This document shows, in pieces, positions 7,538 through 42,679 of a stretch of DNA of 42,679 nucleotides. Under the pieces are notes generated by a model. The model searched no databases. It was given only the letters and a program-made list of their open reading frames with translations, and was not told the DNA's origin. The translations under genes and the position numbers were made by a program. Numbering within the stretch: the stretch's first letter is position 1; the number at the start of each line of letters is the position of its first letter. The stretch comes from Amoebophrya sp. A120. Taxonomy: Eukaryota > Protista > Dinoflagellata. The stretch is from positions 72,982 through 115,660 of the forward strand of contig CAJINV010000035.1 in the NCBI GenBank assembly GCA_905178155.1, given 5' to 3'.

Positions 7538-7555
7538 GTTGGCGAACCAGAATCA

Positions 7556-14300: not shown

Positions 14301-14580
14301 ATGTATCAGCCAAACTTCTAACTTTTCAGTATCAAAAGTGCGAAGATTGTGAGGCGCAAATCTGGGTGGAAGGGAAGACGCCAGATTTTGCATCACAAAC
14401 TTGGCCCTTCTGATTTTCGGGAAATGCAGCGGAAATGTATCAGCCAAACTTCTAACTTTTCAGTATCAAAAGTGCGAAGATTGTGAAGCGCAAATCTGGG
14501 TGGACGGGAAGACGCCAGGTTTTGCATCACAAACATGGCACTTGTGATTTTCGCGAAACGCAGCGGAAATGTATCAGCCA
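8346..14580. repeat. 134-bp satellite, ~46 near-identical copies
   Basis: Exact 134-bp period, also visible as identical 62-aa ORFs every 134 bp. Variants seen only in the first few and last units. Contains the imperfect inverted repeat TTGTGAGGCGCAAATCTGG...CCAGATTTTGCATCACAA. Confidence 0.98.
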
Positions 14581-15864: not shown

Positions 15865-18800
15865 CTACGCCAATTCCTTCCGCCATTTGTCGACAAACGC
15901 CCCCCGCTTCACGGGGTCAATCGAGAGCAGGCCGTTCAAAAAATCCACCAGCTCCGTCTCGTCTTTCGTGGGAATCCGATTTTCCGTATCGTCTGTTGTC
16001 AGCGCTCGCGGATTATGAATTGCAAATCTGTCCGGAGCTTCTGGAATGCTACTGACTGACGATTCGCATGCTGTTTCAGGGTGACCCAGGAGGTCTGGCA
16101 AGCAAGACCTAGCATCACAATTTTTATTCAAACGTCGACCTTCCAATGCCTAGTCCGCATGACAAATCTTTGAGCTACAGCTACGAGGCCGCTTTTGCGG
16201 TTCATGCATGACAGATTTTTGCGAGTGCGTGATCTCAAATGTGCATCAGAAGTTTGCATGGTTCCCTACAGGACATATCTGCAATGCATAAGGCTCCGGT
16301 GCTAGTGCGGGAAGCCCTTGTTCGCCAATCCGGTCTCCGTTCCTTTCTTTCTCCGGAAGCAGGTTGCTCAGCAGTCGCCAGTACTGTAGGACGCGGTTTG
16401 GACCCGTCGAGTTGTCGGGCACTTCTCGCGACCGCGCGTAAATATTGTAAGCGCGCAAGGAAACCGGCTTCTGCACTTGCAAAAATATTGCGCTATTCAT
16501 CTTTTCAGGGGCTAGGAAACTGCACTACATTTTTCTACCTCCTGCAAAAAATATAAATTTCTGATTTTTTAGTATTTTCGTTCATAAGCACGGATCGACG
16601 AAAAGGACATAGGTGGGATATTTATGATCAATTCAACCAGCAGTACAAATCAAGTGTGTGATATTTCGCTTTCCTACGAAGCGTTGCAGTTTTTCAACAG
16701 CACCTGCTACATGAGAGCACTAGGATTGCAGCATTCCGGGATACCCGTAGTCCATCCACAGTGCTTCCAGTTCTTTATCGAGGATGGCTACCTGTTCTTT
16801 CCTCGCTTCAAGGATGGCTAGCTGTTCTGCGAGTTTCCGTTCTTTCTCCTTCTCGTCATCGGCTTGTTGTTTCTCCTCTCTCGCTCCATCTGCTTGTTGT
16901 TGTTGTTCCACCACATCAACGACCGGCTTGCTTTCGTACTGCCCCGCTTCTTCGTTCGCGCCATGTCGCTCCAATTTATTCCTCTTTTTGTACGATATGC
17001 ACCTTCTACACGAAAATCATGCCTGGTCCTGGTCCGGCACGAGGAAAAGTCCACGTGCACGAAACGAACGCTATTACTCGTATACGGACGTTGAAGATGA
17101 CACCAGGATGTGCTTGGAATAAAACAACCCTTCGCACTACTTGTTGGTGCATCGGAACACATAGTTACTTTACTTCACGTGCACGTGGACAACCACAACT
17201 ACATTATGGAAGAACATACATAGTGTGAAAAATGGCTTCTAGTGCGACAAATGCAAGCATAACACTGACCTGGACCCAGGTATATAAGTAATTTTTGCGC
17301 AAGATATTATCGCTGTTCAAAAACTTTTTGTCCTTGTCGTCACGCTGCAGGACAGGTCCCCCAACCGGCTGTGGCTGCTCCTCGTCCACCATCAAAACCT
17401 CCTTTCCGCTGTTCTTCTTTCCGAAAATGTTGAAGCCGCCGCCCTCGTGCAGCAAATTGTCGCTCTTGCTTCCCTGGAGGCCGCGCTCTTCATCGTCCCC
17501 GTTCGGGTCTATTTCCAACGACGGAAGCTTCTTCGGCCTTGCCTTCATCGCCTTTGCCATCTTTTTCCCACCACGGAGCGGCTCTTCCTGCTTCTCCAGC
17601 GCGAAAACATTTGCGGCCGCAGGATTTGCCAGCGCCGAGGAGGAGGAAGCTGAGGACGATGAGCTTGATGCTGAGGAGGAGGAAGTCGATGCAGGTGATG
17701 CGGCTGCCGAGGAGCTCGAAGAGGATGACGACCCCCCACCCATCAGCGGCGCAGTGATGGGCTCTGTTGGCGACGATGCGGGAGAGGAAGAAGACACGGC
17801 GGGACCAAACCCGACGTGGAAGGCCGGCAGATCGGGGCTCCCGGCACTTGAGGCAGTGCTGTCGCCCGATTTGTGCTTTTTCAGTCTCCCGGCAGCCCCC
17901 GCGCTAGCCGGCCGCTTTACCCCCTCGCCGGCCGGTGGCTTGGCCTGTGCTACATCTCGGAGCCGAAAGGTCATATGATCCCCGCTCGAAGCGTCTAACA
18001 CCAGCGCACCGCCCTGGGGCAGGGGGAAGAAGGGAAGCACGTAGTCAATAGCCGTGCCGCGGATGTGTTTCGCGTCCCCAAGCACGCCGCGCACGCGGTC
18101 AGCCACTGGACCCTGAGCAAACGACGGCACCGCGAGGCTCGCGCCAACGACTCCAAGGCCCCAGGCGTCTTCGATTATCGGCGACGACTTTTCGTAAGCG
18201 GCGAAGCTTTTCGTGTACAGGGAGCGAAACAGCTTCTTCGGATGCTCCACAATCACGCCCCGCTTCGGATCCTGCTTTTTCTCGCGTTTGTATATCGCTT
18301 CGATCTCCATGTTCATGATGTAGAAACCCCCTTGCTCGGGCGGCACAGACGGGAAGTCCGCAATTTTTATCGCAAGAAAAAACTGCTTCACTGTGAACTT
18401 GTGATGCAGAAAATGTATGGACTGCATCTGCAAATATGTCTGGGTGTGGACGATTGCGAGATTTGTCATGCTAGTCTGGCACGGCTCTGAACTCTGTACT
18501 GCGTGGCCGCGCAGAGCTCCTCTTGCCTGTCATGCAGACACTCAGTGTCTCATACGGAGTACGCAACTCAGAACCACGGCAAAACTTGTCATGCTGGACA
18601 GCGCATTACAGTGTTTTCACTACTCCCTTCCATGCGCCCCAAGTTTCGAGACCCAGACATATTTGCATTTGCCAAAATGGGACACAGAACTATTTGTCTT
18701 GCTACATTTTCAAGACGTGGAAGTTTCAGCCGTGTTTTCCGTCGAGAAGCGCGCACGGCAAATTTTCTGTGTCATGTGTAAACAAACTTGCGCCGCAGAT

Positions 18801-21125
18801 CTCGCAAAACAATCACAGCGAAGCACTTTTTTCATGGGATAATTATGGCGCGCTCGCTAATCTTCTTCGCCCGGTCTTCTTTATTTTCGTCCCGCTTTGC
18901 AAGAAGTTCGGCGACCTCTTTTGCCTCGCCCATGTCCATCAACACGAAGTGGAGAGTCGAAGGGAAACCCCTGCCGTAGCCAACGTTTTGCAGCTTCAAA
19001 TCTTATCCAAAGCAAACCTGTCTGGATCTGAAAACCTGTGGCGCTGACTTGCGCACGGCTGGAGCGCTTGCACTGGCTGCCAAGCTGACACGACATACAT
19101 GCGGATCGGTTTTGGCTTTTGCTACCTGCCACACATTACAGTTACAAGTCGCCGATCTGGTTATATATTGCATAACAAAAGAAGGAGCGGCTCCTCATGC
19201 GGCCGAGGCCTTCCACGCAAAGGGGTACACGGCACACGCGAAAAACGGGCGCCGCCTTTCCAGACCCAAACAGGTCCGCAGTGCATAGATCTCGGTGGGC
19301 GTAGCCGACGGCCTCGAGGTGGAACAGGGCCCGCAGGCCGTCCTTGTTGAACTTCAGCAGCTGCCCGGCCCCCGTTCCCTCCGGCAGGCCGACGACTGCC
19401 GGGACCAGGGCGGCGCACAAAATGCTGGACCCCTCCAGATCCAGCACGGCCAGGACGTTGTCGTGGGGCTGCCCCTGCAGTTTTTGGAGGATTTTGGCCT
19501 CCTTTTCGAACGCTTCCCTCACTGCACTACTCGCTTCCTGCGGCAGATATTTTCTCGCCGCCAACTGGAACGTCCCGGCGGCAAGGTCGGCAACGGCGCA
19601 CAACTCCACTTTGAGACTGCGACCCAGGTGCCACTTCGTGTCATACACGCTGAACAGTTTGCGGGAGCTGTGCTGCTGAGTGCGTGTCTTCTTCCCGAAC
19701 CGTTTGGCGGGTACATATTTGCTTGCTCGAACCTGCTCTTCCCGGGCCTTCTGCTTGAACACGTCCACGGTGAGATGCCCTGCATGCCGGGTCGCAGGCC
19801 TCTGAGGCTGCTGCCTGCTGCATTCTCGGCAGATAATCTCGCCCGCCGCGGACACGGTCCAGTTGTCGTGGTAATTATACAGTGGCGTACTGCAGCTGGC
19901 GCAACACGGGTAGAGGCGCGCCTCTGTGATCCCTGCGTCCCCACGATCAGTCGTGACTTTCAATCGCAGACCGGCCGCATCCTTTTCTGGCTTCAGGCTT
20001 TTCTCTCGACGCTTATCGGTTGCAAATCATACGCCATTCAGGGTGTGGAATGATTGCATCTTTCTCTACTTCTTCGAGAATTTCAATTTTGAATCCGCAA
20101 TAGATTGATAGATAAGTAGTATTTCGAGGCTAATATTAATTGCATCATGTTCTCTACAAGAAAACTATCACTCGCCATGCTTGTGAGGACCGGAAAGGCT
20201 AGGAAATCATGGCTCTTGAAGTAGTCACTTCACCTTTCCACACGAAGAACAGATATAGTTTGCATCGGGTATTCTTGCTTCACCTGTGCCCGCTTCTTCT
20301 TCGCTTCTTCCGTCATGCGATACTGATTCCAATCGGCCCGCTGAAGCCTCGAATCCGTGGGAATTTCGGCCGCAGTTGGACTGATGATCGTTGATTCTTC
20401 GAGGATTATTCTTGTCGCCACCATCTCATTGCCGGTTTCCGTTGCGATTACCACTTCATCTTCTGGCTCGCCAAGGTTTGTGCTGCTGTCGAGGAAGAGG
20501 AATATTGTGCCGTCTTGCTGCTTGCCGTGCGCGCCGCGCGCCCAGTCCAGAGGGGGCACGAGCAGGGCTCCTTCCTTTTCTAGCTGTTTGTTTGTAACAT
20601 CACGTAGAGCTGAGCCCGCGGGCACGGCATCCGGCGTCGCCGCTCCCAGGAAGGTTGACGCCTGGAACTCCTTCAAGGTCAGTTCGTGCATCACCCTGCC
20701 GCCACCTGCTCCCTCGCGGAAAACCTTGACAAACTTGGGAGGGGGCTTTTTTTGCACCGTTTCCACGTAATCCAGGAGCCGGAAGTGCACGCCGTGCTGG
20801 TCCACGCCCCGACTATGACAGTGCACAACTCCGTCTCTCTCCCGTGAATTTGTCATGCAAAAAAAGAAAAACATACTTAAAAATAAAATCCGAATCTCAG
20901 CAGTTGTTATCTTGCATGCAGGCCTGAATTGCATGACAGGTTGCAGCATGTCGAAAAACAACAGTGTCATCCGTGCTTGGATGATTTGGTGTGCTGGAGC
21001 TACATTCTTTGCTGCTACTCGCGCAAAGGAAATCAGGGGGAGAGGCAGTAATCATGCACTCCCATACCAATACCATCTCGTCCATTTTGCCTCTTCCATC
21101 GTGTGTGCCAGAAATTTGTCGACGC
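15865..21125 (-). CDS. Multi-exon Ser/Thr protein kinase with an upstream CxxC...CxxC motif and a long low-complexity insert; 5' end not resolved
   Basis: After removing inserts, the motifs appear in canonical order: AARK, EAFEKEAKILQKL..HDNVL, HRDLKLQN, LMDMG, SVPPE, DAWGLG, DFLNGLLSIDPVKR. Stop at 15865-15867. The links across 16470-16743 and 20814-21066 are the least certain. Confidence 0.85.
16014..16290. mobile_element. Decayed family-1 introner-like insert (kinase gene)
   Basis: tatgaattgcaaatctgtc...ggacatatctgcaatgcata, flanks cggat/aggct. Removal gives LAPEP|RALTTDD in frame. Confidence 0.75.
16470..16743. mobile_element. Strongly decayed insert / probable intron (kinase gene)
   Basis: Ends tctgcacttgcaaaaat...ccgggata, with a poor direct repeat. 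Removal plus 5 nt gives WMDYG|VSLRAY in frame and connects kinase subdomain XI to the gene. Confidence 0.5.
16996..17306. mobile_element. Decayed family-1 introner-like insert (kinase gene)
   Basis: Right end cctggacccagg...tttttgcgcaagata, left end tatgcac. Removal gives NSDN|KKRNKLERH in frame. Confidence 0.65.
18368..18841. mobile_element. Old insert hosting a nested younger copy (kinase gene)
   Basis: tatc...gata ends, flanks atttt/attat. Removal gives SERAII|ADFPSVPPE in frame. Confidence 0.75.
18416..18674. mobile_element. Family-1 element nested in 18368-18841
   Basis: TIRs tatgg...tgcaaatatgtctgggtgtgga and gagacccagacatatttgcatttgcca, with a perfect AAATG duplication. Confidence 0.85.
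19004..19287. mobile_element. Family-1 introner-like insert in the kinase catalytic loop
   Basis: tatccaaagcaaacctgtctggatctgaaa ... tttccagacccaaacaggtccgcagtgcata, flanks aatct/gatct. Removal gives HRDL|KLQN. Confidence 0.92.
20014..20271. mobile_element. Decayed family-1 insert (kinase gene)
   Basis: tatcggttgcaaat...tttgcatcgggta, direct repeat largely lost. Removal gives VKQE|REKSLK in frame. Confidence 0.65.
20814..21066. mobile_element. Decayed insert / probable intron (kinase gene)
   Basis: tatgacagtgca...tgcactcccata, flanks ccgac/ccaat. Removal gives KWTRWYW|GVDQHG, but the upstream open frame is short. Confidence 0.5.
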
Positions 21126-24025: not shown

Positions 24026-27000
24026 TCACGAAGAGGAGGATGAAGAAGAAGGAGCGGCGGGGTTGTTGTTCTGTTTCTCCTGCCGCTTGTGTTCCGCCCT
24101 TGCCTGCTGCAGGCTCTGCATGATGTAGGGCGACGGGTAGTCGATTATCAAATGCAAAAGTGTCTGGGTCTGGAAGGTTGAGGTTCTAAAGTTGTAATGC
24201 TGTCTCTGGATTCTGAAGAAATTTGTATTGCGTGACCAGCAAGAGAACTCCAGCCTGTGCTACGCGGAGAGGGCATTTCTCATGCGGCAGAGGCATCGCA
24301 AAGTCCTGTAAAAATCTGTGATGCTAGAGCATGCATCACAGACATCACGCGTCATTCAAAATATGCATGACAAGCCTGGCAATCTTCCAGACCCAGACAT
24401 TTTTGCGCTTGATATCGATAATTCGGACACCATTCAGCCAGGTGTTGCCCACGTCTTCGATCTTAGGCGGGTCTTTCAACGGAGTGATGCGATCCAGTTC
24501 GTAGGCCATGACGGGTTTGAAATTGCAAGTTTCCTATCAAATGGAAACATGTCTGGGTCTGGAAGGATGCAACGTTTGTTATGCACATTTTGCATCATGA
24601 CTCCTGATGTCTGTGATGCATGCCCCAGCATCACAGACTTTGTGAGGATTTCCTGATGCCCATACCGCATGAGACATGCCGTCTTTCCATGGCAAAAGCA
24701 GGACCGCTTTTGCTCTTCATGAAATAAAGGCTTTGGTAGAATGCAGACGCAGAGTCACAAGCTGCATCCTTTCAGACCCACACATATTTTCATTCGATAT
24801 TTCCCAGGTGAGGGGCGGACGCGGCTCCCCGAGGTCCTCCGCTTTTACATTCGGGAGCCCTAGCCATTTGGCCACTGCTTTTGTGCCCCGGTCGGGGTTG
24901 GACTTGTAGCCGCGGCTGGTGATGTGGTCCAAGAGGTCCGCCTTCGTTTTCAAGTGGACCACCTTGGACAGCACGCCGACCGCGACAATCGCCTGGCTCC
25001 TGTTGTTATCAAATGCAAAAGTGTGTGGGTCTGGAAGATTGCAATTTGTCATGCTGTTTTTGGACTCTAAAAAAATTTGTATTTTTGCATGACCAGCAAT
25101 AGGGGTCCAATTTGTGCTATGCGGACAAGCGATTTCTCATGCGGAAGGCGGATCAGGAAGCCCTCTAAAAGTCTGTGATGCTCGGCCATGCATTACAGAC
25201 ATCATGGGTCATGAGAAATATGCATGACAAATCTCGCAATCTTCCAGACCCAGACATTTTTGCATTTGATAGTTGTGGCGGATCAGGAAGGGGATTATGG
25301 ATTGCAAAAATGTCTGGGTCTGGAAGATTGCCAGGTTTCTCATGCATGTTTTGCATGACCCAGAAGGTGTGGAATGTGGGCTCTAGCATCACAAGTTTTG
25401 AGAGGGCTACGCAATGCTAAGTCCGCATGAGAAATGCCGGCCTCTGGTAACCAAAGCTGAGGACTTTTGCTGGTAACGCAATACAGATTTTTGCATCGAT
25501 CAGATTTAGAGTGACACACTCGGACTCTTCCAGACCCAGACATGTTTGCAATGCATAGGGATGCCAGCGTCACAACCTTTCGGCGAGTGTTATGGCGGTC
25601 GCAAGCGTTACACCACTCGCTGCTACTTACACGAAGATGGCTTCACGTTGCCGTGCCGGTGTCCATATCAGAGGAGCTGCAACTACAACTGACCCATAAG
25701 TAGCCAAAGGCGGGAAGCCAAAGTAAAGCTTGTTCATCTTCATTCGCTTCTTGCATTACAAAAAATATGGAACAGGTCTTTGCGCTTCCATTTGGCGTGT
25801 CAAAAATTTGGCACCCGGGCCATCTCGGTCATGCAGAATTTGCCTGCGCCTCGCATGACAAAGCAGGCCGAAGTTATCTAGCAGCGAGCAGCGTAGCAGT
25901 GGCTTGCCAATGTCATACTTTCGCCCCTTTCCGATACTCGGCGGTCTTGACCTTTAAGACGAAATCGTCGCAGTGTTCCGCCTCTAAGCTCGCCACTCCG
26001 ACCCGGGGCTCCTCGTGCAGGAACAAGGGCTCAAACTTGGCCACCCGGCCGTGGAACCCGCCGTCTTTGGTTTCTTCCTCCCTCCAGCACTTCGCGAGCT
26101 GGTCCTGGAGTGCCTTACTGGCCTCGCCGACGGCGTCGCGCAGAGCACCGACTTGCGCGCTGCCCATGGTGGATTCCTTGACCGCGTCTTCCAATTCCCG
26201 GACCGAAGTGTCCAGCGCGAGCTTCAACGCCAACAGCTTCTTCTCTTCGTTGTTCCATCCGTGGTTGAATTTGCTCGCAATGGCACCGGCCGCCAGCTTG
26301 CACTGCCACTCGACGAAGGCCTGTAACGAACTTTGTCCACTGCAAATGTGTCTGGGTCTCCTGGAAGAATGCAAGATTTATTGTGGTTGTACACATTGAC
26401 ACTTTGCATGACCAATGATGACGGTATTTTTCTGCATGAGCATGAGCATGAGCATGACATAGCATCACAAATTTTGTTGAGAGGGCATCCACCTGAGGCC
26501 TATTCCGCACAAGAGATGCTCTCGCTGCGTACTTACCACAAACTGGACTCCTCTGTCTACTTGCCGGTCATGCAAAAATACAGATCATTCATTTTTTCGA
26601 ATCCAAAGACAGCATCACAAGTTGCATCCGTCCAGACCCAGATGACATCACATTTGCAAGAGATATACCGCCGTGCCCCGTTACGATAGACTGTCGCAGG
26701 TCTACCACCGTCATGTACGTCCCTGCGTGGTTCGGTTGCAGTCGGTATCAAGTACAAAAATGTCTGGCTCTGGAAAAGTGTAAACTTGTGATGCAGATTT
26801 TCCATCACCCGTGAGGTCTGGAGTGCGGGACTCAGCATGACACACTCTGCGAGGTGGTCTCTGCCATGCCTATCCTGCATGAGAAGCTCAAAAGTGAACA
26901 GGTTTTGGTAATCATGCAATACAGATTCTTACATGATTCAGATCTACCACGACAAGTTGCCACCTTCCAGACCCAGACATTTTTGCATTTGATAGTCGGA

Positions 27001-30000
27001 AAAGGTTGTGCTTCGTGGAGATTTCTCGCTCCCGCTTCTTGAGGTAGGCGTAGATTTGTTTCTTGTCATCCATGCCCTGGGTGATCGGCTCCTTTCCGCC
27101 GGGCTTCTTCGCCTGGATGACGCCTTTTTCGAGCCACGGAGCACGCTTGTTCCCGATGAACAGCTCCCACTCCTGCGCCCACGTGGTGATTTCTTTGTTC
27201 ATTTCGTTCATGGCGAGTCTCGCACTGGGGCCCCCGCCATCGGGGAGGCGGGGGAAGTATCCACTGCAAATACGTCCGGGTCGTGCTCTGAAATGTTACA
27301 AAATCTGTCATGCAGGTTTTGCATAGCGCAGAAGGTCTGGAATGCGAACTGTAGCATCACAATTTTCAAGAAGTAAGTAGGCGTCCCAGTGCGTAATATT
27401 TATAATTCCATTCTGCAAAGAAAAAAGACCATCTTCGGGTGCCCAAGAAAAGTGCATGTCTTTATTTGCTTGTGCAACACAGATTTTTGTATCGTCCAGA
27501 CCTAGCGTGACAGATTCAGATCCTTCCAGACGAGGACCCAGACATATTTGCAATGCATAGAAATTTGGAATTTGCGATCTGATCCTCCGCGTCTTTCTTT
27601 TTCTCTTCCGCCTCCTTCCTGTCCTTCGCAACCGTGATCTTGCTCAAATCGACATTGATACGTGGTTGGAGATTCATGCTCTCCATGAACTCGCTGGCCA
27701 TGAAGGGGCCCTCCTCGAGCCACACCTCCTTCTGATTATCGGTGGGATTTTTCTCATTTTTCTTGGCCGGATCTTGGTCCTGCATCTGGACGTCCTCATC
27801 TTCACCGCTAGAGGGGGGCTCGGGGGCGAATTGCACTGATTCTTGTTCGAAGGTGTACGATGACGCGAACGCAGGTTTGGAAAAATTGATCTCCATCGCG
27901 GCTAGCTTATTGGTCTTGTTTTCCAGAAAACTGTATGCCTTGCAAAAGTATCGTGTACTAGTATCAATTGCATGACAAATTGATTTAGCATTACAACAAA
28001 TTGAATTTGTAATGCGGATCTGCTTTTAGGAGAAGGAATGCATAATAAATGCAATGAGTACGAGCACGATGCTTTTGCACTGCATAAACTGCGGAAGTCT
28101 TTCGCCGCATCCATCTTCATCTTCATGCCGTGGTACTCGCGGATGTAGTATGCATTGCAAATATGTTGTGTGGGTCTGGAAATTCGGAACTTGTAATGCG
28201 GGCCCGACATTTCTGTGAGGTCTGTATGGCAGGACTGAAAAAAGTCGTAGCCTCTTTTGTTGTACAAAAACGCAGCTTCTCATGCGGAGTGCGTATGAGA
28301 AAGCGTTCTGCCAACTTGTCATGCTTTCCGGCATAACAAGGTGCTTCTGCTTTCATCATGCACATTTTCGCATTACAACTTTCCAGACCCAGACATATTT
28401 GCATTTGATAAGTAGTCTTCCGTGGTCATGCTTCCCGGCTCGGGGGCGGCGTCCGCTTCGACCTGGGCAGGAGTTGTATGGCCTTCTCAAACGTTTACTA
28501 CAGTGAATGCTGTTTTTCATAAGTTTGATGCTAATAAACCGACATAATCATGACACTGTGATGCAAGAATAGCAAAAATTGTGAAAGGGGCGAGAAGCGA
28601 GTTTGCGTGTCTTGCACTGCAGATCTGAAAAGCATTTTAATTTTTTCAATGGTAATATCTACTGCGTGGAAAACTTGTCATGCGAACAAGTACTAGCTTG
28701 TGCTTGATCTTCGTTTGGAAGGGCAGAGCAATTTCACGGAACAAATGATGTAAACAGCGTATATCACTGTCACGTTGGAGAATTCCATAAGCTGCAGAAG
28801 CATGCTCGGGTTTCAGGACCACGTCACGTCCGTTTCCTTCTCCGCCTCCCTGCAGTTTGCGCTTCTTGCTCCGTTATGCATTGCAAATATGTGGTCCTCT
28901 GGGTGTGGAAAGAACCAAACTTTTCTCATGCGCATTTCACAACACACACGAATCTCTCTACTTGCATAAGCAGCAAAAGTTGTCCAATTTCTGTCACCGA
29001 ATTATATGGGGGATTTGTCATGCGCACGCGGCATTGCAGAACCTCTACCTCCCCCACGAGACCTATGATCATGCTAGGACTTAAATGCCCGACCTTGTGA
29101 ATCATGCAAAAACACCAGCATGACAAAAATTTGCAGTCTGGAGCCAGAGACATATTTGCATTGGATATGCGTCCCGTGTCCTCCCCGCCTCCATCGCCCT
29201 CCGCCGCAAATTTTATGGAAGTGGTCCCAGCTGTGTCAATCTCAATTGTGATAAAGAAGAGCCGACGAGGTTTTGAACCAGAATACTTGAATTTCTAATG
29301 CGAAATAACAGTGTGCATGAATAGGCAAATGCTTGCTGCTGTCGACTCTAATTCATCCCAGCAGTTGAAATTCTCACCCCAGCAGTGACCATATTTTCAT
29401 CGTTGCTCTTCGCAGCATCGTCGCTCGCCGCCACCAACAGCGGCTCCGGCTGGTCATCGTCGTTCTCGCTTTTCGCGTCGCTGTCGCTCTTGCTCGAAGC
29501 GTCGTTTTTTTCGCCTTCTTTTTTTTCCTTCGTCTCCCCTTCCCAGGAGTACTCGGCCAGCCCGCCTTGCAGATTGATGACGTGGATGGTAGAAGAAGGT
29601 CCGCGAACTATTGTGAGGGAAAATATCCCTCGTTCCCCATACTGAAAAGAACGACTTGATTCATTTTTGTGTACACAAAAGTATAAGAAAAAATCAGCTC
29701 TGTCTTGCATCCATTAAACTCGGGGGCCATGATGTGGAGAGCACAACTCCACGCGTCAACAAGAAGAACCGGGTGAGTGATATACTCGCAAGCCCTTGAT
29801 GCAATGCAGAGCTGATCTGTCGTGTACAACGCATCAGAATCTTCAGAAAAAAAATCGTTTTCAATATGGGGAAAGCGCCGGGAAGTAGTTTTCAGCTCCG
29901 TATCACCGCCGAGGAGCTTGTTCAGAAAGGTCTGCACCTGTTGATTCGCTTTCCACTCGACCCACTGGCCGCCGCCGCCGGAGCGCTCGATAAAAGCCTT

Positions 30001-30318: not shown

Positions 30319-32054
30319 AGTGAATGCAGCTCCTTCCGGAGGATATAAACTACCTGGGAAAGAACGACTTTGCGTTTTTTCTCCACCTGGTTGTAGTAGT
30401 GATGATAAGCACGACGTTCACGCGTTTTCTTGTTTGCTCAACACTTTATTATTAGCACTTTAGTAGAAGTAGAAGCTGAAGCTTAGTTGTAGTATCCTTT
30501 TTTACAAAAAAAAAGGCAGCTTTATTTCCTTTCCCTACATGTAGTTTTTCAAAAGGTTCGAGCGTTCTCGTCTCGTCATTCTCCTCGGACGGAGAAAATG
30601 ACAGAAAAACAGTTGGTTTATTTTACGACGCCAGCGTTGCAACAGATAGAAAAAGTTTCTCAAAATAAATCCTCGCCGAGGATCGATCCCAAAATCGTTG
30701 ATTACATCGAAGTTGATCCCAACAGACAGCACAATCGAAGATCCAAAAGTGCTCATCGAAGATCGCAAAACTCATCACCTCTTCGAAAAAATAGGGCAAT
30801 TCCCGACGGCGAAAACGAACCCCGATGTTGACCACGAATTCGCCGGCGCAAATAACGAGCAGCTTTTCTCTGTCGCAGTTCTTGGAACACGAACTTATTC
30901 ATCTACGAGCCGAGCAGTCACAGCTTCAAGAGGGCAAAAGAAAAGAATTTTTTCGTAGAGTGTACAAGTTTTTTCGTTTATCAGTCAGTACTTGTCTCCA
31001 AATCTGTACAGTGTTACAAAGCTTGGTGATATGTTGCATGTTGGACTCTTGAAAAAATCGGTAACGGTAGTGTAAACATCAACCAGCAGGTCGCTGAGTT
31101 GTAGTCTACACCTGCAAATATGACAGGAAAATGAATCGAATTGTTTCGACGTAGTAAATATGACATTTTCTATCATGCTTTGTGCGTCAGCAACACAAAG
31201 AATTTGGGTAATATCCATGAAGTCGTTAAATTTTGTCTGTGCAAGAAGGAGGGAATGTGAACTGCTCATACTGATGCCCTTCCTCTTCTGGACGCGGACT
31301 ATCAATTATGTTGACAAAGAGCTGATTTGAGTACGTAGTTGTACTTGCATTTGTTATATAGGTTTGAAATCGAAACTGTATTGATCGTCTGAGAAAGAAA
31401 AATGTAAAAATCAGTCAAACTACAAAGATGAGTGCTTATTACGTGCATTGCACGAAAGGGTAGAGCGAAACTTGAAATAGTAGATGTTTGAGCTTCCGAT
31501 TCAGTCGAAATTGCGCTACAGAATAAAGACGAGTTGGATATGGATATTATTTTTTATTTTTACATCTAGAAGTGCAACGTATTATTTCCATGTGTTCTTG
31601 AGTACTCTGGCCACACTGCACAGGGCGATGTGAAAGCTAAGTTACTTCGAAACGACAAAAACGGATGCTCTACTTTTCGTGCAACTGTTGCACGGGTTTG
31701 GTCAAAATTGGAATGAAGTAAAAATGATTGTAAAAGTTGCGCTCCCCACGGCTACTTCTCGGCCAAAGCCAATCACCCCTGCTGCATCCGCGGAAATATC
31801 ACAGAGTAGTCGCTTATGAAAGTGCGCAACTCCCCATCCCCTCACTTGTCATGCAAAATCCCAAGTCTACCTTTTGCCTCTTAGCACTTTTTGCATGACA
31901 GCTTCCGAAAGCCAAAACAGCACTACAATCCTCTAGGAATTTGTCATGCAAAAGCTGCATCTTGGCCAGCGCTTGTCCTTGTGTTGCTGTTCATGCAATA
32001 CAAATGAGGGAAAGGGGGAAAAATGCTCTTTCATATCGCTGACACGAGTCTCAT

Positions 32055-35000
32055 TTATTTTTTCTCCTCCCCGCTCGTCGTGGTGTCCTCCGTCCAAAAC
32101 TCCCTTCCGACTCCCATAAACTCCAATGCCTTCTCGCACCGACCCTTCTCTTTAGCAGAAGCCGTTGCAAAATACGATGCGTCTTCATCTCGGAGAGGAA
32201 ATCCAGCACAAAGAAATGGCGGGTGCACTTTGTGTAGCCGGCACAGTGCTTTTAAATTCCGCTCGTATCCGCCATCCTCGGTGAACGCCTGCTTTGCTTT
32301 CCCGCAATTCCCATTCCCGTATCCTGCAAAACCTCACCTCAACCCTCTAATTTGTGATGCGAATCCAAATCAGCAGACATTCAATGTTTGGGCAAAGTTT
32401 GGTTGTTTGAAATTGGTATTTGCCTATACAAATTTCAACACAATCACAATCTCGATCTTGCGTGTTGTGCATCACAAATTAAGTGCGTCTGTGATTTTTC
32501 GTGGCGTAGTACCCCGTCGGCAGAATTGATCTTCGCCTCCACCAGCGCTACCCTGATATCGGGTGCAAATATGTTTGGGTCTGGAAAAGTGCCGAAGTTT
32601 GTCATGCGGGTTCCTTTGCAGGGCCCAGAAGATCTGGAATGCAGAGCACCTCAGTACTTCTACAGGCTCTGCAATATTGACGTTGTGTTTGCAATACGTA
32701 TTCTGCATAAGAAACCCTTTTTTCTTCGTGTGGCCCACAAGATTCGTCAGCTTTATGTCCTACTCAGGCATGACAGATTTCTGTGCGCCTGACGGAGAGC
32801 ATCACAAAATCGAATCTTTCCAGACCCAGACGTAACTACTGCGGCTCATACCTGACTGGTGTACACGATTGTGGTGGACAATACACGAAGACGTCGCTGA
32901 GGGCGGTGCCGTTAGATCCACCGCACAGTGCCGTCACAGAGAGGGCGGGCTCGTCCCCATTTTCGGTCGCGAAAAGCAGTCGCAACGCGCTGTAGCTGCT
33001 ACCGGCGTTGTCGCCCCCAGCCACGGAAGATGAAGCTTCGCTGGTGAACCTCGTGTTCTGTTCCTGGACGAGCGACAGTTCTCGTTTTCCACCCAGAAAG
33101 CACAATGGCCTCCCCATGCGCCCTTCGCGGAAACACTTTGTTGCTTCGCTGCTCCAGTTCGTTTTCAAAAACGCTATCAGCAAACTTCCGTCGCAACCGC
33201 GCACCATGTAGTCATGTCGCGGAAAGCATTCTTCTATGCGGATCACCTCCGGCAAGAACTCCGAGTCGGGGGACCAACTAAAATTTCCTTGCTCAGAATC
33301 TACTTCGCGGCTCAGCTGAAACGACAGGCCGTCGAGATGCGTTGGGTCCACTTGGTCCAGGGCCCGGATTAAGCTGTGCGGAATTTCGGAGCATATGCTT
33401 CCGGTGCGAAAGAACGATTCCGCGCGGTCCCGGGTCAATTTTGGAAACAAAACGTCGATATGGGCGGGGACAAGATTTTGCTGCGCGTGCCCAAATTTTT
33501 TCGGGAACCCGCTCTTGGAGGTGCCCAGATCTTGCACAAAGTCTCCGAAGATGTTTTCACGGTGGTAAGTGAAAGAAGAAAGACTAACATCCGGCCAGGC
33601 GAGTGCGAAGGCAGCGGTCGCGCCGCAGGAAAGCGCGGGGACTGGTGCTGCGTGGAGCTTTTTCAGAACGCGCTGCTGCATCATCGGATCGGTGGCGGGA
33701 TCCCAGGTTTCCATGGAAAAAAAAACTTGATATTGCTCGACAGTACAGGGGAAATGCCTCGGCATGTCCTCGACCCAATCAGCAGTGCTTTTTTTCCAAA
33801 CGTCCTTTGCGTCCAATTCGTTGTCGATGTGGAAATTCAAAGGGTCGTCCTTCTCGACGCGGAGCAGGAGTTGCACGCCGAGGCCGACCTTGCCTTTCAT
33901 TTCGTCCAGATCCTTCAATATATCCTGCAATATTACGTACCTCGTCGAGAAGTTTGCTGCGAACCGCACGGAAAGCCCGCACTGCAGATCAACGCAGTGG
34001 GAAGTATCATACTCAATGTTCTCGACTAACCCTGCGATCTTCATGCTCAAGAGGCAAGTCTTCTCGGCTACCCCTGCGATCCGGCAAGTGTTCCGGTCCT
34101 GCCCGACGTGGTAGAGGTCTTGTGCCGTACAGCGGGTGACGGATTCCTCATCTGCCGGATCCACGAAATTGACGATGAGTGCCGGTTTGCCGACGATGGC
34201 GTTCGGGTCCGTCCAGTATGAAGTGATTTTTGGAGAAAGAAACCTGTCTCCGATCCACACGCGCAAGGGAAGAGGATGCTCAACGACGTCCATCACCGAG
34301 AGCAGCGTGGCGGGAATGCCGGACGGATCCCCCGTGCGAAAGAAGTGCTCTGCCTTTTTGCGGCCCAATTTTGGAAACAGCAACTCAAGATGTTCAGGGA
34401 CGGGGTTTTGTTTGGCGCGGCCGAATCTCTTCGGGAATCCCGGCGTCGCGGAAGTGACGTCCCGGGCGAAGCGTTCGAAGTATTCCTCTCGCAAGCCCTT
34501 CTGGCTCATGTCCTCTCCTGCTAGTGCGTAAAGCGCGTCGAGTGCCGGGTGTCGTTCGGGAATTTCGGCTGAGCGGAGCGCCTGCGTCATTTGGGTAATA
34601 CCTGAGGGAGACTCTTCATCGGTTTCGTCAGCGTCCTCGTCCTCGCTGCGTTCGTGCTCGCGATATAATCGCTGGTTATCACAGGGGCGTCGAAAAAGAA
34701 GTTGGCAGCGCTCCACCGCAACCATCGGCGATGAGTGACCGGTTCTGGGACACTTGTCGCCGTAGGAACCGCCAAATCGTGACGCCCACGCGTCAGGGTC
34801 CACCAGGACAGCCGCGAGATTAGTTTCCCAAACGTTGAATGCAAAATTATCTGGGTCCCACAACGTCAGCGCGTCGTCCAGCTGCCACGTCAGCCATGGA
34901 TCGTTCGTTGCCGGGAAGCGAAACACTATTTCCAGCTGCATGTTGGGGAACGGCAAAGCGCCCTGAAGCCGCAATCTCACGCCGTTTTGCAGATCGACCG

Positions 35001-37967
35001 TGAAGTAGGACCGCCAGTGCGCATCGACATCACTCACGAGCGTTTTTCCTGCCAAGGTGCAGCACAATTCTCGGAAGTTGAAGAGCTTTGGCTCGTCCCC
35101 CTCCTCGGGACCGAAATCCACCTCGAGCTGGGCAAACCGAAATCCAACTCGAACTCTGCCACGACGTGTCCATAAAAAGTTCTGCTGTTGCATGGGATCC
35201 CGAAAAGTCCGGGTCTTGTAGGACTTGATTTTGGGGTACCAGGAAGTGGTCTTGTCCTTCACACACAACCCCAAAACTTCATGAGCCTGCATATGACCTG
35301 CTCAACAGCTGTTACAATCTGAAACGTTACAAGAGCAATGCTGCTAAAAGTGCGCTGTTTAGTCTACTGTCACGGTATTGCGCATGACAAGTTACGGAGC
35401 TTGAACCCCAATGAGAATCTGGCGAAATTTGTATTGCGAAAAGCGCAGAGCTCTGCATGTTCCTCGTGCTCTCTATGCAAGACAAACCCCAAATTCTGTT
35501 GCAACGCTAAAGATTGTAACATCTGAGCAAGCCATACTGCAAGCGCTTATCGCGTTTTGTGTACACCGGAGGGTCCGGCATGAAGCGGTAAATCAAGCGC
35601 CCAATCTCGTCGGGGACGGGGACCGGAAACGCCCGCTGGACGGTTTCCGGGTTATTCTGTTGCCCAGTGACTATGCAATGCAAAAGTAGCAAATGTGATT
35701 AATATATCGTACCAATTCTTAGCAGCAGCATCATGGCAGCACAAATTTCTGCGTAATTTTTCCACAAGGAAACGAAAAGCTGAAACTTCTATTTGTCATG
35801 CGTGTTATGCAAGACGTACGATATGAATAAGTATTACCATTGCAGAGGGTAGCAGCTCTGCTATCTGTTCCTTCATCTGCACTTCTACCACCATTCACCG
35901 ACGTCGTTCCACCACCAGCTTGAGGATTTTCCACAGCACCAGACCGTCTTCTTGGCGAAGCCACGGAGCCCGACGTAGTGGATGTTCCTGCGTCAGGTGG
36001 TTGAAAGGCAGAACCGACCGCCCGGAAACCGTATCCTGTGCAAAACAAAGTATCGCACGACGCGTATGAAACACGTACGACAATAAATTTTATCCGCATG
36101 AAAAATGAAATTCGTCATGCGGATTCTCCTTGAGAAAGAACTTTGTAATGCATGACTGCGATTAGTACGAGAACGAGTGCGATACTTTTCCAATGCATAG
36201 ATCGCGTTGGTGATTTGCAATAACACGCGCGGACGAGGAACTCAAGGAAGAAGCTGCACCTGTCGAGAAAAAAAATTCATTTGATTTGGTAAACTTGTGA
36301 TGCATGCAGACGGTATACCACTCACTTTGAATGAACACGGTGGATCTGGACTTCTAACTACCTAAACTGCCCATTACTAGAAGAAACGCATTACAGGTTC
36401 TCATTCTCATCTCGGGGTCGGGAGGTTGTACTATACAGAGAAACTCGCTTGTGATGCAAAACTTGGATATCAAAATCGTTAAACTTCTAGAACACATTTT
36501 TCCTTATCAAATACCGATCTTTTCCTGCGTCGTCGCTGCGGCCACACCACGTCGGTCCTCGTCAGCCCTCGTCGGTGGTAGCAAAAATGTTGGTTGTTCT
36601 TGTGCACTAGCAACTGCAGATGCCGCCACACTTGTTTCTCTTTGTTCCCCGTGCGTAAACAACTCCGGAACTTCTACGCTCTGTTGCAAGTTCAATGCGC
36701 TGCTCGTGTCGTGCTCATGATCACTTCCTTGGACTGGTCCGCGTTCCGCAGAACTCGATGCACCTGCATATCAAGAAGAAAAATCTCCCCTCCCCATATC
36801 AAAACCGAAATCTGTGACGCAGATTTGTGGGCACAAATCAGCTTTCTCATGCTAGAAGCAAAGAGATGCGTATGCGGAGTGTAATGCTGGCTGGCGTGGG
36901 AAAGCCTTGCGCCTTCATCATGACAGAAAAGAAAACGAGTGGAAGTGGATAGCAGCATGACAAATTGCCTGCAAACGAATCCGGAGCTGCCTCTCGTGGC
37001 CTTTTAGCACTGCAAAGCGATTTTTGCCCTCAAATACAGCATCACAAATTTCGTTTTCGATATGGGGAGGGGGGATTTTTCGTTTTGATACTGCAACGGA
37101 ATGAGCGCCTCGTCGTGCTGCATCGGCCGGCGCAGACGTAGCTGTCATCGCCGCCGGGACGAGACTTGCTTCAGCCAGCTGGTGGCCTTGACCAGACACG
37201 AGGGGTGGGTTGCTGGACGAACTAGAACTGGAACTGCTGGGGGCTTCCGGCTGTCTATGCTTTGTGAAATTGATTATGACCAGCTCCTGCAATGTCAATT
37301 TGTTTTTGTTATGCAGGTATTATGCCTATTGCCATGACAAATTCCATTTCGTGCCGTCTTAAGACGATCGTCTACGACGACTGCATGACGGATTGCCATA
37401 TGAAGAGCTGGTACATTTATTTCCATCTGATAGGACCGTCCCAGCGTACGCGTAGCTTGCCCTGCTTGTAGTCCCAGCGTGTCAGAAATTGCGGCATTAC
37501 CGCCCGAGGGCGGCGCAGTTGTCGTCGCAACGTTATTGGGAACGTCGGTCCTCGCGACGACTCGCAGCTGCCGCTCGTCCTCTCTTTGTTTCTTCTCAAA
37601 GCACACCATAGCCGCTATGGGGTTCTCAAATGTTACATTCTCAACTGTTTACATGATTTGTTATGCAAAACGAGCATCAACGTCCACAAAATGAAGCTAC
37701 TTCGCATGACAAATTTTGGAAGGGCTAAACAGGATGAGAATCTGTGCTGAATTTGCATTGCAGGAGTTGCAAGATCCGGCCTTTCCCTGTTGCCATTCTT
37801 GCATCACAAATTCATGTAAGAACAGTTGAGAGTGTAACAATGGAGAATCCCATAGCAGCCTGCACGCAGAGTGCGTTCAGCTTCTTCTTCGCCAGCTTTT
37901 CGGAGTACTTCTCGGCGAGCCGGTCGAAAAGGTGCTGCACATCCGGCGCGCGGATGTTGTGCAGCAT
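32055..37967 (-). CDS. Hypothetical protein (paralogue A, ~10 exons) with a tandemly duplicated module
   Basis: ATG at 37967 (MLHNIRAPDV) to TAA at 32055-32057 (...FWTEDTTTSGEEKK) stays open after removing nine inserts, and includes the 818-aa ORF. Two copies of GFPKxFG..xQNxVP..xxxLFPK...FFRTG. Weak F-box-like PDEIGRLIYRFM at ~35580-35615. Confidence 0.75.
32320..32511. mobile_element. Decayed insert with internal inverted aatttgtgatgc/gcatcacaaatt
   Basis: Flanks tcccg/ccccg. Join reads NSADG|xGNCGKAK in frame. Confidence 0.7.
32557..32850. mobile_element. Family-1 introner-like element
   Basis: TIRs present, perfect CCTGA duplication. Join reads CTPVR|VALVEAKIN, matching the uninterrupted paralogue. 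This one can also be drawn as GT-AG. Confidence 0.93.
35292..35536. mobile_element. Family-4-like introner element
   Basis: tatgacctgctca...tgttacaatct / agattgtaaca...tgagcaagccata, perfect CTGCA duplication. Join reads DKRLQ|AHEVLG. Confidence 0.85.
35672..35851. mobile_element. Decayed family-2-like insert
   Basis: tatgcaatgcaaaagta ... ttgcagagggta. Join reads DSRAA|GQQNN in frame. Confidence 0.6.
36032..36199. mobile_element. Family-2 insert
   Basis: tatcctgtgcaaaacaaagtatcgcac / gtgcgatacttttccaatgcata, flanks aaccg/gatcg. Join is open. Confidence 0.7.
36261..36513. other. Strongly decayed insert / probable intron
   Basis: Right end cttctagaacacatttttccttatcaaata resembles a TIR. Removal plus 5 nt is in frame; the left end is uncertain. 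Confidence 0.45.
36769..37090. mobile_element. Family-3 introner-like element with ~55-bp TIRs
   Basis: tatcaagaagaaaaatctcccctccccatatcaaaaccgaaatctgtgacgc is mirrored at ~37040-37090, perfect CTGCA duplication. Join reads HSVA|GASSSAE. Confidence 0.9.
37256..37432. other. Decayed TA-bounded insert / probable intron
   Basis: tatgc...ctgata ends. Removal plus 5 nt gives TLGRS|PEAPSS in frame. Confidence 0.55.
37616..37854. mobile_element. Family-4 introner-like element
   Basis: 34-bp TIRs TATGGG(G/A)TTCTC..TGTTACA.TCTCAACTGTT, flanks gccgc/gcagc. Join reads LCVQAA|MVCFEK. Confidence 0.9.
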
Positions 37968-39170: not shown

Positions 39171-42106
39171 TCATTTTTCTTCCGTCCCACTCGTGGTGGC
39201 TTCCTGCCAAAACTCCTTGCCGACCCCAATGAACTCCAGCGCCTTCTCGCACACCGCCCGCTCGGTAAATCCCGGAAAAAAACAACGTACTCATATACTC
39301 ATAGTTAGGGTTGCAATACAACATCACGAAAATGTAGCAGCTCGTTTCTCAATATACGAATAAACATCGACTTTCAGAAAAATTGTATTAGGCATGCAAG
39401 TGATTTACATATGATGTACGAGTACGACACTGTGTTTCTTGCAATGCATACGGCAGCACAACCGAGAAAATTCGAGCATGTTTTCGCGTAAATTTCGTAC
39501 GACCCGTTACCTTCTGTAAACGCCGTGTCCGCCCTCCCGAGGTACCTGCTAGATTATCCAATATGAAATCCTCTCCGCCCGCAATCTGCAACTGCAATCA
39601 TGGCAGCACGCACGCAAATACTCTACGAGTTCACTTCTGTCATGCCAGTTCTGCGTCACAGAGCGGGCGCGAGGCCGGTGTTGCATGGCGTATCTCACCT
39701 GTTGCAAAGTTCATCTTGGCCTTGAAGAGCGACACGGCGGTTGGTGTGGCTGACCCCGGCGGAGAATACAACACGATTTCCTGTAGACCGGGAGTTGGCG
39801 GCTGACGGTCCTAGTTTCGAAGTGGAGAGGTTTATTGTAACGCAAACTCAATACCGAGGACGAGCTCAAATTCAAAATCAAATCCGAGCACCGTCTAGAA
39901 GTAGTCTTCACATCTTACAAATCCGCACTAACAATCTCACTATTCAAAGTCTAGTTTTTGAGTTTCTCATGCTTTAACCGTACTTATTCTCAAGGAGCTT
40001 TCCCTAGCGTGACCGCAGCCATGGCAGCTCATCTCCTTCGGAGTAGTAGAAAAGCCAGCATGTCATGCGGACTCAAGATGAATCAGGCCTTCTTTGCTTG
40101 CTGTTCTCTTTCTCACTTTTTGTTTTTTTCTTTTCCTTTATCTTTCGATCGCAGTAAGAATTACTTAGCCTGCTCCTGTTTGCTTCCTGGCCTTTTTCCT
40201 TGCGCAGACGAGTTCTTTCCTTTGCCTCCATCATCATGCTCATTTTCCGCACGTCGATCTACGAGAAGACGAAACAGTGTCCTTCAAAAAATGAACCAAA
40301 AATTGTTCATACACAGTCTTCGTCGCCACACAGCGTCGCGAGGGACAAAGCGGGCTCGTGCGCATTCACGGACTTGAAAAGGAGCCGCACTGGACGATGG
40401 ACCACGGAGCTCACGGAGACGGACGCAGTATGGTCTCGCAAAAACGTCTGAGTCTCGAGTCGTGTAAAAACGCTATGAATGATGTCGTAGTTTTCCGCAA
40501 GAAAATGAAAATCCTGGAAACTAGTCAGGGGCTTCGCGCAGGAGACCGCGACCACGATCCACCGACTTCCTCGAGGACGAAACCCCTGCGCACAGCATGC
40601 AAGAATGTGCAGCTAGTACTGCTCCTGTGGTTCAGTTCAAGAAAGGAGCAGGTCCTGATGATCTGCATGTTCCGTATCCATTTGTCAACCACACGGCCCC
40701 AACAAACCCAAACGTCTTTATGTTGGATATGCATCTCTATCGCGCTGCTCTTCCTTCGCGAGCGACAGCTTCTGTCTGCCGACGACAAAGCTGATTTTCC
40801 CTTCCCGGAAATCTTTTGTTTTCTCGCTGGAGGCGGAATATCCAATGGAAACATGTCTGGGCAGCTTGGAAAAGCGCAACGCTTGTCATGCAAATTTTAC
40901 AAGACTCGTGAAATAAGTCGGTAATATTGCCCTAGCATCACAGATTTCCTGAACGCTTCTTGTTCTAGATGCCTGTTGGGCCAGACAGATGCCATCGCCG
41001 CGTAGCAAAAACTGGACTCCTGTTTCTGCTCACGCAATACAGATTCTTGCAGAATCCAAAAACAGCATAACAACAAACTTCACTCTTCCACCTGACCCAG
41101 ACACATTTGCATTTGATACGACCCATTCGTCTTCAAATCGAATCAGTAAACTTCCGTTGCGACCTATGGTGTGGGAAAATTCCTCCTCCCCACTCTCAAA
41201 TCACATTATACTTTGGAACGCCGATTTGCGTACTGAATTCAGCCCTGTCTTGCGAGATGGCAAGTGTAGAGGTCTTTCGTTGCGTCATGCACGCGGGTGG
41301 CTGCATGCTAAAAAGCTACGCCGAGAAATCCACACTCGAGGAGGTACTGAGATCCGTCTGTCGTTGAAGGCGAGGCAGGGCTGATCTGTGCACACGTATG
41401 CACAGGTATAGCATCACAAGTTCCGCTTTGAATATGCCGAGAAGGGATTTTTCCTTTTGGTACAACCATGCAGCATGTAGCAGGGGGACGAAAATCGCTG
41501 GTAGAGGTTGTAGCGGTCCGGATCCAAATACCTGTACAAGCCGGAAAGGAGTGTTGGGTCCAAAATCTCTACCCACTCGAGTAAAAGTTTCGGAATTCCG
41601 GTCGGATCACCTGTACGGAAGAAGGACTCCACACATTCGCGTGACACTTTCGGAAAGAGTAGGTGGGTGTTCGCTGGGACGAGGTTTTGTTTTTCCGGTC
41701 CAAACATTTTCGGAAACCCCGGATTTGCGGAACAAAGGTCGGTTTCAAACTCTCTAAAACGATCACCTCGCCGTTCATGGTACGCGTCAAAAGGGTCCGA
41801 AAGTGCGAAGACGCTCGTCTTTGCAGCGGAGGTTTTTTCAGGGACCCCTGCTGCCCGCAGTCTCTGGGTGACACGATCAATCGTCTCGCTGATACGATCG
41901 ACGTCTCGCTGAGAATGTGCGCGCGACGAGAAGAAGACTTGGCAGCGTTCGATGTTAATCGAGATCGGTCTTCTCCTTAGATCGGTACGATCATACCAGA
42001 TTTCCTCGGCCACGTCATGGCGATGTCCACTACTGTCGTACTCTTGCCAGTCCACCCCATGTCCCGAAAAGCGGCCGCGTGGGATCTCCTTGGCGGGGAC
42101 ATCAAA
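39171..42106 (-). CDS. Hypothetical protein (paralogue B of the 32055-37967 gene); 5' end and some junctions unresolved
   Basis: Collinear similarity to paralogue A: GFPKMFG..QNLVP..LLFPK..FFRTG; GSLLIRF..SSEKTKDFREG; RLLFKSVNAHEPALSLATLCG; YSPPGSATPTAVSLFKAKMN; AFTEG; CEKALEFIGVGKEFW. Stop at 39171-39173. Confidence 0.75.
40429..40729. mobile_element. Decayed family-1 insert
   Basis: tatggtctcgcaaaaacgtctgagtct ... acccaaacgtctttatgttggata, flanks cgcag/tgcat. Join reads QRDRDA|SVSVSS. Confidence 0.75.
40839..41118. mobile_element. Family-1 introner-like element
   Basis: tatccaatggaaacatgtctggg ... gacccagacacatttgcatttgata, flanks cggaa/cgacc. Join reads FEDEWV|ASSEKTKDFREG. Confidence 0.88.
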
Positions 42107-42679
42107 CTAAAAATCACCCTTCGTCCCCATGCTCAAACTGAAACTTTTTCTGCAAGTTGAGATGCGTAGTACGTAAGTCACTTTGTATTTTGGCATGAAG
42201 CATGATCATCTTCTATTTGGCGTAGGATCATGCCTCTGGTGTTGTAGGCCAAACAGCATCTAGAGAATGGTGGACGGCACCATGCAAAAAGCCGACCTCG
42301 ACGCCCCCCAGCTTTAGCTTTGCCAAACATAGCCGCCGGGGCGGGGGTAGTGAGGTCGTGGGCGTTTTCTTGCCGGCTGCCGCCTTGGCCGCGGCTTTGC
42401 TTTTTCTGGGCTCGACATACCGCCGTGAGTAGCATTATGCCGCACGATATGGCGGCCGCTCGAGAAACATTGCAAATTTTGGCAAATCTCCGAAATTCCT
42501 TTCCAGAGCCCAGCCCCCATGCTATGGCGCCGATCCGGGTGCCACGGGGGGCGCCCAAAAAGCGAAGAAAAATCGGGCCCATAGCATGCGGATTGGCTTT
42601 GCGCGTCTGGGGCGCTTTTTCTTTTTCGCGTTTTTATTTTTCACGCCGGCGCTTTTTGCAAAGCTTCCCAGGCTCTGAA

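Follow-up and report, generated by a model that had tools for sequence, protein, structure and literature searches.

Introner-derived introns at one Amoebophrya sp. A120 locus point to a fixed removal register

The genome of the dinoflagellate Amoebophrya sp. A120 contains introner elements, which were described by Farhat et al. (2021) as sequences of about 240 nt that have non-canonical borders, are spliced according to RNA-seq, carry no internal transposase, and are bounded by terminal inverted repeats (TIRs) of the form TAT, 7 nt, AAA and by direct repeats of 3-5 nt (PMC7789003). According to that paper, non-canonical introns make up over 60% of all introns in A120, their mode of removal is an open question, and their borders are variable or unknown, with no clear signature. 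Gozashti et al. (2025) list TIR-DNA introner families of A120 of about 250-310 bp, which likewise make introns (PMC12130899). In the 22 of their 58 A120 rows considered here, the large families have a 5' GT in roughly a quarter of copies, as a free first intron base would give, and the automated calls, with duplications of 2-5 nt and mixed co-opt and carry labels, state no single register. Here we analyse a stretch of 42,679 nt of the A120 contig CAJINV010000035.1 (assembly GCA_905178155.1, positions 72,982 to 115,660; hereafter the window), in which four minus-strand genes, A to D, are interrupted by inserts of this kind, and in which the transcripts point to a cut placed 1 nt before and 4 nt after the element.

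The inserts are almost certainly the A120 introners already published, since they fit the description of Farhat et al. in strain, TIR layout, border repeats and splicing, without a difference in kind. One exon each of genes A and B is 100% identical to Amoebophrya sp. A120 proteins with consecutive identifiers on the same contig; the organism and the elements are thus the very ones that a preliminary description, made from the window's letters, had named as a precedent. Intron positions +2 to +4 read TAT in 16/16 RNA-spliced copies, A occupies +12, +13 and +14 in 12, 11 and 13 of these, and the 16 RNA-supported borders are not GT-AG. Ten perfect 5-nt direct repeats flank inserts in the window, the depth of the DNA run X1 is very high over the inserts, and 110 copies were found on other contigs. 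The elements and their non-canonical splicing are therefore known in this strain, while the -1/+4 register was not found in print. In the literature searched, neither a fixed register for A120, nor independence of orientation, nor one-sided conservation was found; Fig. 3 and Figs S19-S23 of Farhat et al. may show part of this.

A skip of the insert plus 5 nt had been set as a prediction before reads were compared. The contigs compared come from four runs (X3-X6) of a single sample and are classed as RNA by the tool's guess. They yielded 16 junctions: 15 were read at contig joints, 2 of these across a micro-exon fragment of 14 letters, and the sixteenth at the loose end of a contig. The skip equals the insert plus 5 nt exactly in 16/16 junctions, none of which can be slid to GT-AG or GC-AG. 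The transcript check proposed in the preliminary description thus gave the gaps it expected, and its claim of precise removal outside the GT-AG rule held, as did its remarks that sliding gives GA-AG at 24535 and GT-AG at 32557. The junctions come from genes A and B; genes C and D and the paralogue of gene C have none because X3 cover of 29400-42679 is thin. The raw RNA runs X9 and X10, which bear the same species label, leave the exons uncovered, place 101 and 3 reads on repeat parts, and contain no junction.

Contigs of X1 pass unbroken, at a single-copy depth of 42-46, through six of the skipped inserts (25591, 27934, 28477, 28875, 29214 and 29609); X1 is a single run that may be the window's own source sample, and so is not independent. 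As DNA contigs keep the inserts, removal very probably takes place at the RNA level. The preliminary description had also allowed for removal from DNA, and excision at some life stage, as with the internal eliminated sequences of ciliates, would make the spliced contigs rearranged DNA. The TA ends and the exact loss of one duplication would suit such excision, as would the guessed RNA label and the fact that the DNA joints seen are the top 15 of 824. However, the absence from somatic DNA that marks ciliate-type sequences is contradicted by the X1 contigs; the spliced contigs stop at 23656-23678 in 4/4 runs, like a transcript end, with 22976-23436 empty; and the asymmetry of the cut is tied to transcription rather than to the element. 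Excision from DNA is accordingly highly improbable. In some X3-X6 contigs (24146-25296, 28410) element ends continue into foreign flanks, and a contig of low depth falls within the 25591 insert; such contigs would stem either from introns retained at other loci or from carried-over DNA.

Where the two copies of a duplication differ, the mRNA reveals which bases are kept. A single register is common to 16/16 junctions, namely register 1, in which, read along the transcript, the intron comprises the element with 1 nt ahead of it and 4 nt behind it, while the other registers fit 7-11 junctions. A test that avoids hand-picked ends, with a motif drawn from the same junctions, gave 16 for register 1 and at most 11 otherwise. 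The introns then have the form N-TAT(G/C)...(G/C)A.A-NNNN, and register 1 is the sole possibility at 25591, 29214, 29609 and 20014. The public gene models agree with this placement. P0001 equals the -1/+4 splice of gene B over amino acids 1-730, from which other registers differ at 3-8 positions, and P0002 is identical to the splice of gene A over 1022 amino acids in register 1 only, the splice having been made before the model was retrieved; it restores the kinase HRDLKxxN loop across 19004. A hidden Markov model built from 91 copies showed that the informative inserts lie in both orientations (28149 and 28875 against 16014, 26334 and 27258), and each class intersects at register 1 only; therefore the asymmetry follows transcription, not the element. 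We conclude, with good though not complete confidence, that one fixed register serves these introns.

Several points tell against a firmer statement. Random cutting yields a shared register in 94/200000 trials, but this null includes five decayed copies with ends chosen after the RNA was seen; when it is confined to the five imperfect copies whose ends had been called earlier, the probability is 0.023 for register 1 and 0.23 for a shared register of any kind. Every verified gene lies on the minus strand of a single locus, the junction runs are contigs of one sample under a guessed label, and the public models, built from transcript alignments, are independent of the choice of ends and not of RNA data generally. 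A frame test on 68 copies outside the window put +5 weakly ahead (52 open, against 39-45 for +3, +4, +6 and +7) and was not used as evidence.

The window has 27 introns with support, 16 from RNA, 5 from public models and 6 from the reading frame only; 4 further inserts are candidates. In this register +2 T, +3 A, -7 A and -5 A are present in 27/27, +4 is C in 3/27, -6 deviates in 2, and +1 and -4 to -1 are free. The only GT-AG pair (1/27, at 32557) arises from a duplication ending in AGG. The GT or GC donor and AG acceptor of canonical U2 introns are otherwise lacking, which counts against the canonical class and not against spliceosomal removal. A terminal stem is predicted in most copies; it is weak in 28875 and missing in 16470, 16996 and 29214, all of which are spliced. 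Where the pairs +3/-6 and +4/-7 are disrupted, just one of the two sides has changed. Of the outside copies that have an altered end, at least 4/5 of the duplication and a strand call, 5/5 keep +2/+3 or -7 on the acting side (p about 0.05), with -5 or -6 changed when the 3' end is altered and +4 when it is the 5' end; 3 altered copies have no strand call. In a single case, the copy nested at 18416-18674 with its own perfect AAATG duplication, one terminal motif is decayed in an element that need not be spliced. In Table S4 of Farhat et al. T stands at +2 in 9/9 predominant A120 splice motifs, and in strain A25 the motifs are all TT- and the repeat starts TTA (PMC7789003); the two strains would then share +2 T and +3 A, though the offset from the hairpin would differ.

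Given the three spliced copies without a predicted stem and the one-sided conservation, linear splice-site-like signals within the inverted repeat appear to fit no worse than a hairpin ruler. The preliminary description had proposed that the host recognises end geometry; the position of the cut is indeed constant with respect to the element ends, but its offsets are unequal and follow the direction of transcription, stemless copies are spliced, and +2 T, +3 A and -7 A are conserved on one side only. The asymmetry is based on five changes in the window and five outside. It is contradicted by one ill-bounded outside copy (L115), while the well-bounded L001 has no strand call, and the way in which ends were called accounts for part of the -5 A and -7 A counts in the 11 introns that lack an RNA junction.

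In a rival reading, the elements and the register are unchanged, but a non-spliceosomal RNA endonuclease with a ligase, or a ribozyme-like step, would recognise the terminal stem and cut at these offsets of 1 and 4 nt from it, as has been proposed for the nonconventional introns of euglenids. The strength of the terminal stems in most copies, the lack of G+1 and AG, and the U1 snRNA not detected in A120 are in keeping with such a cutter. So are the Euglena introns, for which a genetically tested fixed-offset code, 5'-N3CDG...CHG-N5-6|R, led its authors to favour non-spliceosomal factors (PMC12501133) and for which excision as circles has been reported (PMC11282704). The stemless spliced copies and the one-sidedly broken pairs speak against it, as does the register, which is exactly the one that yields canonical GT-AG where the duplication permits; moreover, the repeat layout occurs in 15% of canonical A120 introns as well (PMC7789003). 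We consider a stem-reading nuclease rather unlikely.

Removal by an altered or relaxed major spliceosome that reads linear end signals is given about an even chance. The N-UA(U/C) 5' end would stand in the register of a canonical GUA donor that has lost the requirement for G at +1. The invariant -7 A would be a candidate branch point from which the 3' cut is measured, with no need for AG. The same repeat at both ends would supply both signals in either orientation and make any target site usable, and the end stem may help to bring the ends together without being essential. A120 has U2, U4, U5 and U6 snRNAs and 83/89 spliceosomal proteins (PMC7789003), a duplication ending in AGG gives a plain GT-AG intron in the -1/+4 register (32557), and Yarrowia lipolytica, with a branch motif about one base from the 3' site, offers a precedent for a close branch point. 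A more specific version can be put forward only tentatively: a U1-less spliceosome whose code is UA at +2/+3 and a branch A 7 nt from the 3' junction, with no AG, so that any insertion in either direction would be born removable. Weighing against spliceosomal removal, U1 snRNA was not detected in A120 by Farhat et al. (PMC7789003), both canonical checkpoints, G+1 and AG, are free, and the putative signals lie within a predicted stable stem in 12/16 copies, which would need unwinding; lariat, branch point and dependence on the spliceosome are all putative here.

Alternatively, the chemistry might be spliceosomal while the hairpin, or a protein that binds it, takes the place of U1 in defining the sites; the branch point would then lie elsewhere, perhaps within the recurrent internal motifs GCATGACA and GCATCACA. 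These motifs and their complements occur on both strands and are concentrated in the listed inserts, which hold 15/16 copies of GCATGACA while covering 27% of the region, and Farhat et al. themselves proposed hairpin-aided joining and a replacement of U1 (PMC7789003). However, this leaves the invariant -7 A and the splicing of stemless copies unexplained, and the motifs may be transposase-binding sites instead; hairpin guidance thus appears doubtful. A fixed register predicts the first and last base of the excised introns, the candidate branch point and the bases that reporters must keep, and it defines what divergent U6 and U2 snRNAs or a substitute for U1 must recognise. It would also permit exact annotation of A120 genes and would explain how tens of thousands of insertions at random target sites are tolerated.

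The anatomy of the inserts supports a MITE-like origin, that is, from non-autonomous TIR elements with a 5-bp target duplication (MITE, miniature inverted-repeat transposable element). When the window was scanned for TA...TA inverted repeats, 9 pairs proved to have a perfect 5-bp repeat, whereas 5 dinucleotide shuffles had 0 each; allowing gaps brought in 32557 as well as several decayed copies. With an exact 30-nt TIR motif 128 loci were found in a metagenome collection. Among 110 distinct outside copies of 200-340 nt, the 5-bp duplication is perfect in 91 and matches at 4/5 positions in 14; it has no sequence preference, and of the lengths 2 to 9 compared none but 5 fits. The likeness of these copies has a median of 68% and a maximum of 96% (40 compared), and GT-AG is obtainable from only 2/182 target orientations. 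Like MITEs, the elements are short, TIR-bounded and without coding capacity. They would be mobilised by a transposase acting in trans, to judge from the TIRs and duplications. No transposase family was matched among the 17 window open reading frames (ORFs) scanned with Pfam, where the sole passing scores are repeat artefacts in a satellite frame; an Rfam search gave 0 matches, and Farhat et al. found no transposase in A120 (PMC7789003). A 2459-nt copy (L032 476-2934, minus strand) was the only long one found, and was considered as an autonomous element and rejected. It has a perfect AGGAA duplication and interrupts an open frame, but is otherwise an ordinary copy into which a passenger of 2.2 kb has been inserted; the passenger is bounded by a separate 8-bp repeat and includes an ORF of 415 codons that matches nothing in Pfam.

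Most of the preliminary description's account of the inserts stands. Its figure of about 30 is fair, the MITE-derived origin and, for the 17 ORFs scanned, the lack of an encoded transposase are borne out, and its nine perfect duplications all lie where it placed them, to which a tenth, TCGCT at 31815-32035, is added. Deleting each insert with one duplication copy restores the frame, as it had claimed, and leaves 745, 1031, 959 and 234 codons free of stops. The rule of TA...TA ends within 5-bp repeats describes most copies, but 2/16 spliced copies lack the 3' TA (16470 ends in AGA, 26334 in ACA) and many duplications are decayed to 1-4/5. The statement that the genes are interrupted almost entirely by such elements is true of genes A and B; in the region of genes C and D, 36261-36514 is a candidate ordinary intron (GTATTT, a pyrimidine run, CAG) or an element intron ending 3 nt further, the frame being equal in both cases.

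The features of the window are collected in Table 1. The Pkinase match of gene A is weak (E 0.012), and that of its paralogue P0003 is better (E 4e-10). In gene B the joint 25006/25558 holds the 14 letters 25277-25290 between its sides in 4/4 runs; the 19-nt micro-exon to which they belong lies between copies of opposite orientation and is correctly spliced although the neighbouring arms could pair. After amino acid 730 (window about 24000-24070) the frame of P0001 changes for amino acids 731-768, whereas the RNA-type contigs are ungapped over 23678-24140; this C-terminus is likely an annotation artefact. Genes C and D may be one single gene. Gene C (32055-35680) and a gene at about 39170-42100 are divergent paralogues (identity about 36%) in which a domain of about 165 amino acids is repeated internally; they match no family, and homologue searches with gene C gave no match. 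Their insert positions differ, which makes empty-site comparisons possible. Near-perfect tandem arrays occupy 1808-4069 (453 bp, 5 copies, palindromic joints), 4072-7538 (132 bp, 26 copies), 7789-8354 (193 bp) and 8355-14580 (134 bp, 46 copies). The 132- and 134-bp units share a GCATCACAAA-type motif with the introners and may be derived from element interiors.

Table 1. Genes, introns and elements of the window. Registers are those that fit the junction; runs are counted among X3-X6; intron ends are given as first and last dinucleotide in transcript sense.
Feature	Span	Strand	Element	Intron ends or duplication	Support and remarks
Gene A, kinase-like, 7 element introns	15865..21099	-			= P0002 (GSA120T00025639001, 1022 aa)
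Intron	16010..16291	-	16014-16290	TT-CC	joint 16009/16292, 3/4 runs; registers 1-3
Intron	16466..16744	-	16470-16743, decayed	GT-CC	3/4 runs; registers 0-1; ends set after RNA
Intron	16992..17307	-	16996-17306	AT-GT	3/4 runs; registers 0-1; ends set after RNA
Intron	18364..18842	-	18368-18841, encloses nested copy	TT-AA	P0002; registers 0-3
Intron	19000..19288	-	19004-19287	CT-AT	-1/+4 splice, P0002; within kinase loop
Intron	20010..20272	-	20014-20271	AT-CG	P0002; N-TAC start; ends called before RNA
Intron	20810..21067	-	20814-21066	GT-CG	P0002; registers 0-2
Gene B, no Pfam family, 14 element introns	24026..30099	-			RNA-type contigs; P0001 (GSA120T00025640001)
Intron	24142..24415	-	24146-24414	TCGAT	skip 274, 4/4 runs
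Intron	24531..24800	-	24535-24799	TTTCC	skip 270, 4/4 runs
Intron, then 19-nt micro-exon	25003..25272	-	25007-25271	GTTGT	joint 25006/25558, 4/4 runs
Intron	25292..25558	-	25296-25557	GGGAT	joint 25006/25558, 4/4 runs
Intron	25587..25918	-	25591-25917	GT-AC	unambiguous skip 332, 4/4 runs
Intron	26330..26666	-	26334-26665	AT-GT	3/4 runs; registers 1-3
Intron	26742..26995	-	26746-26994	GTCGG	skip 254, 4/4 runs
Intron	27254..27560	-	27258-27559	CT-TC	4/4 runs; registers 0-1
Intron	27930..28087	-	27934-28086	AACTG	skip 158, 4/4 runs
Intron	28145..28411	-	28149-28410	TT-AC	3/4 runs; registers 1-5
Intron	28473..28790	-	28477-28789	TT-AC	2/4 runs; registers 0-2
Intron	28871..29168	-	28875-29167	AT-GG	3/4 runs; registers 0-1
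Intron	29210..29394	-	29214-29393	AT-AT	X5 contig loose end resumes at 29395; also P0001
Intron	29605..29903	-	29609-29902	AT-TC	P0001 Gly66; N-TAC start
Gene C, open over 959 codons once 3 inserts are removed; upstream boundary uncertain	32055..35680	-			frame only; paralogue
Predicted intron	32316..32512	-	32320-32511	GT-GG	frame and paralogue
Predicted intron	32553..32851	-	32557-32850	TCAGG (transcript sense); GT-AG at -1/+4	frame only
Predicted intron	35288..35537	-	35292-35536	GT-CA	frame only; AG one base on would shift frame
Gene D, 5' part, open over 234 codons once 3 inserts are removed	36515..37966	-			frame only
Predicted intron	36765..37091	-	36769-37090	GT-CA	frame only; AG likewise one base off
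Predicted intron	37252..37433	-	37256-37432	CT-CA	frame only
Predicted intron	37612..37855	-	37616-37854	CT-GG	frame only
Element adjoining gene C stop on downstream side	31815..32035			TCGCT, perfect	inverted-repeat scan
Family copy within gene C paralogue	40839..41118				scan

Among intron systems of other lineages, the nonconventional introns of euglenids resemble those of A120 in having a terminal stem at a fixed asymmetric offset, direct repeats that blur the junction and a likely MITE origin (PMC12501133, PMC11282704). However, the lineage is unrelated, and the euglenid code of offsets of 3 and 5-6 nt, CDG and CHG motifs and a purine at the exon start is not that of the A120 introns, whose ends are N-TAT...ATA-N4, with offsets of 1 and 4 nt and no exon-base rule seen. 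The MITE-derived introns of Fritillaria borealis (Henriet et al. 2019) likewise combine TIRs and a duplication with the lack of GT-AG, and their removal is thought to be performed by an adapted major spliceosome (PMC11282704); they prefer AG-AC or AG-AT ends, whereas the terminal bases of the A120 introns are free except at +2. In the introners of Micromonas and Aureococcus (Huff et al. 2016), which derive from a TIR DNA transposon, the splice sites are fixed relative to the element and its duplication, as in A120 (PMC11282704, PMC7789003). Those introners keep canonical sites, with the AG co-opted from the duplication, whereas the A120 inserts are spliced regardless of whether the duplication provides one.

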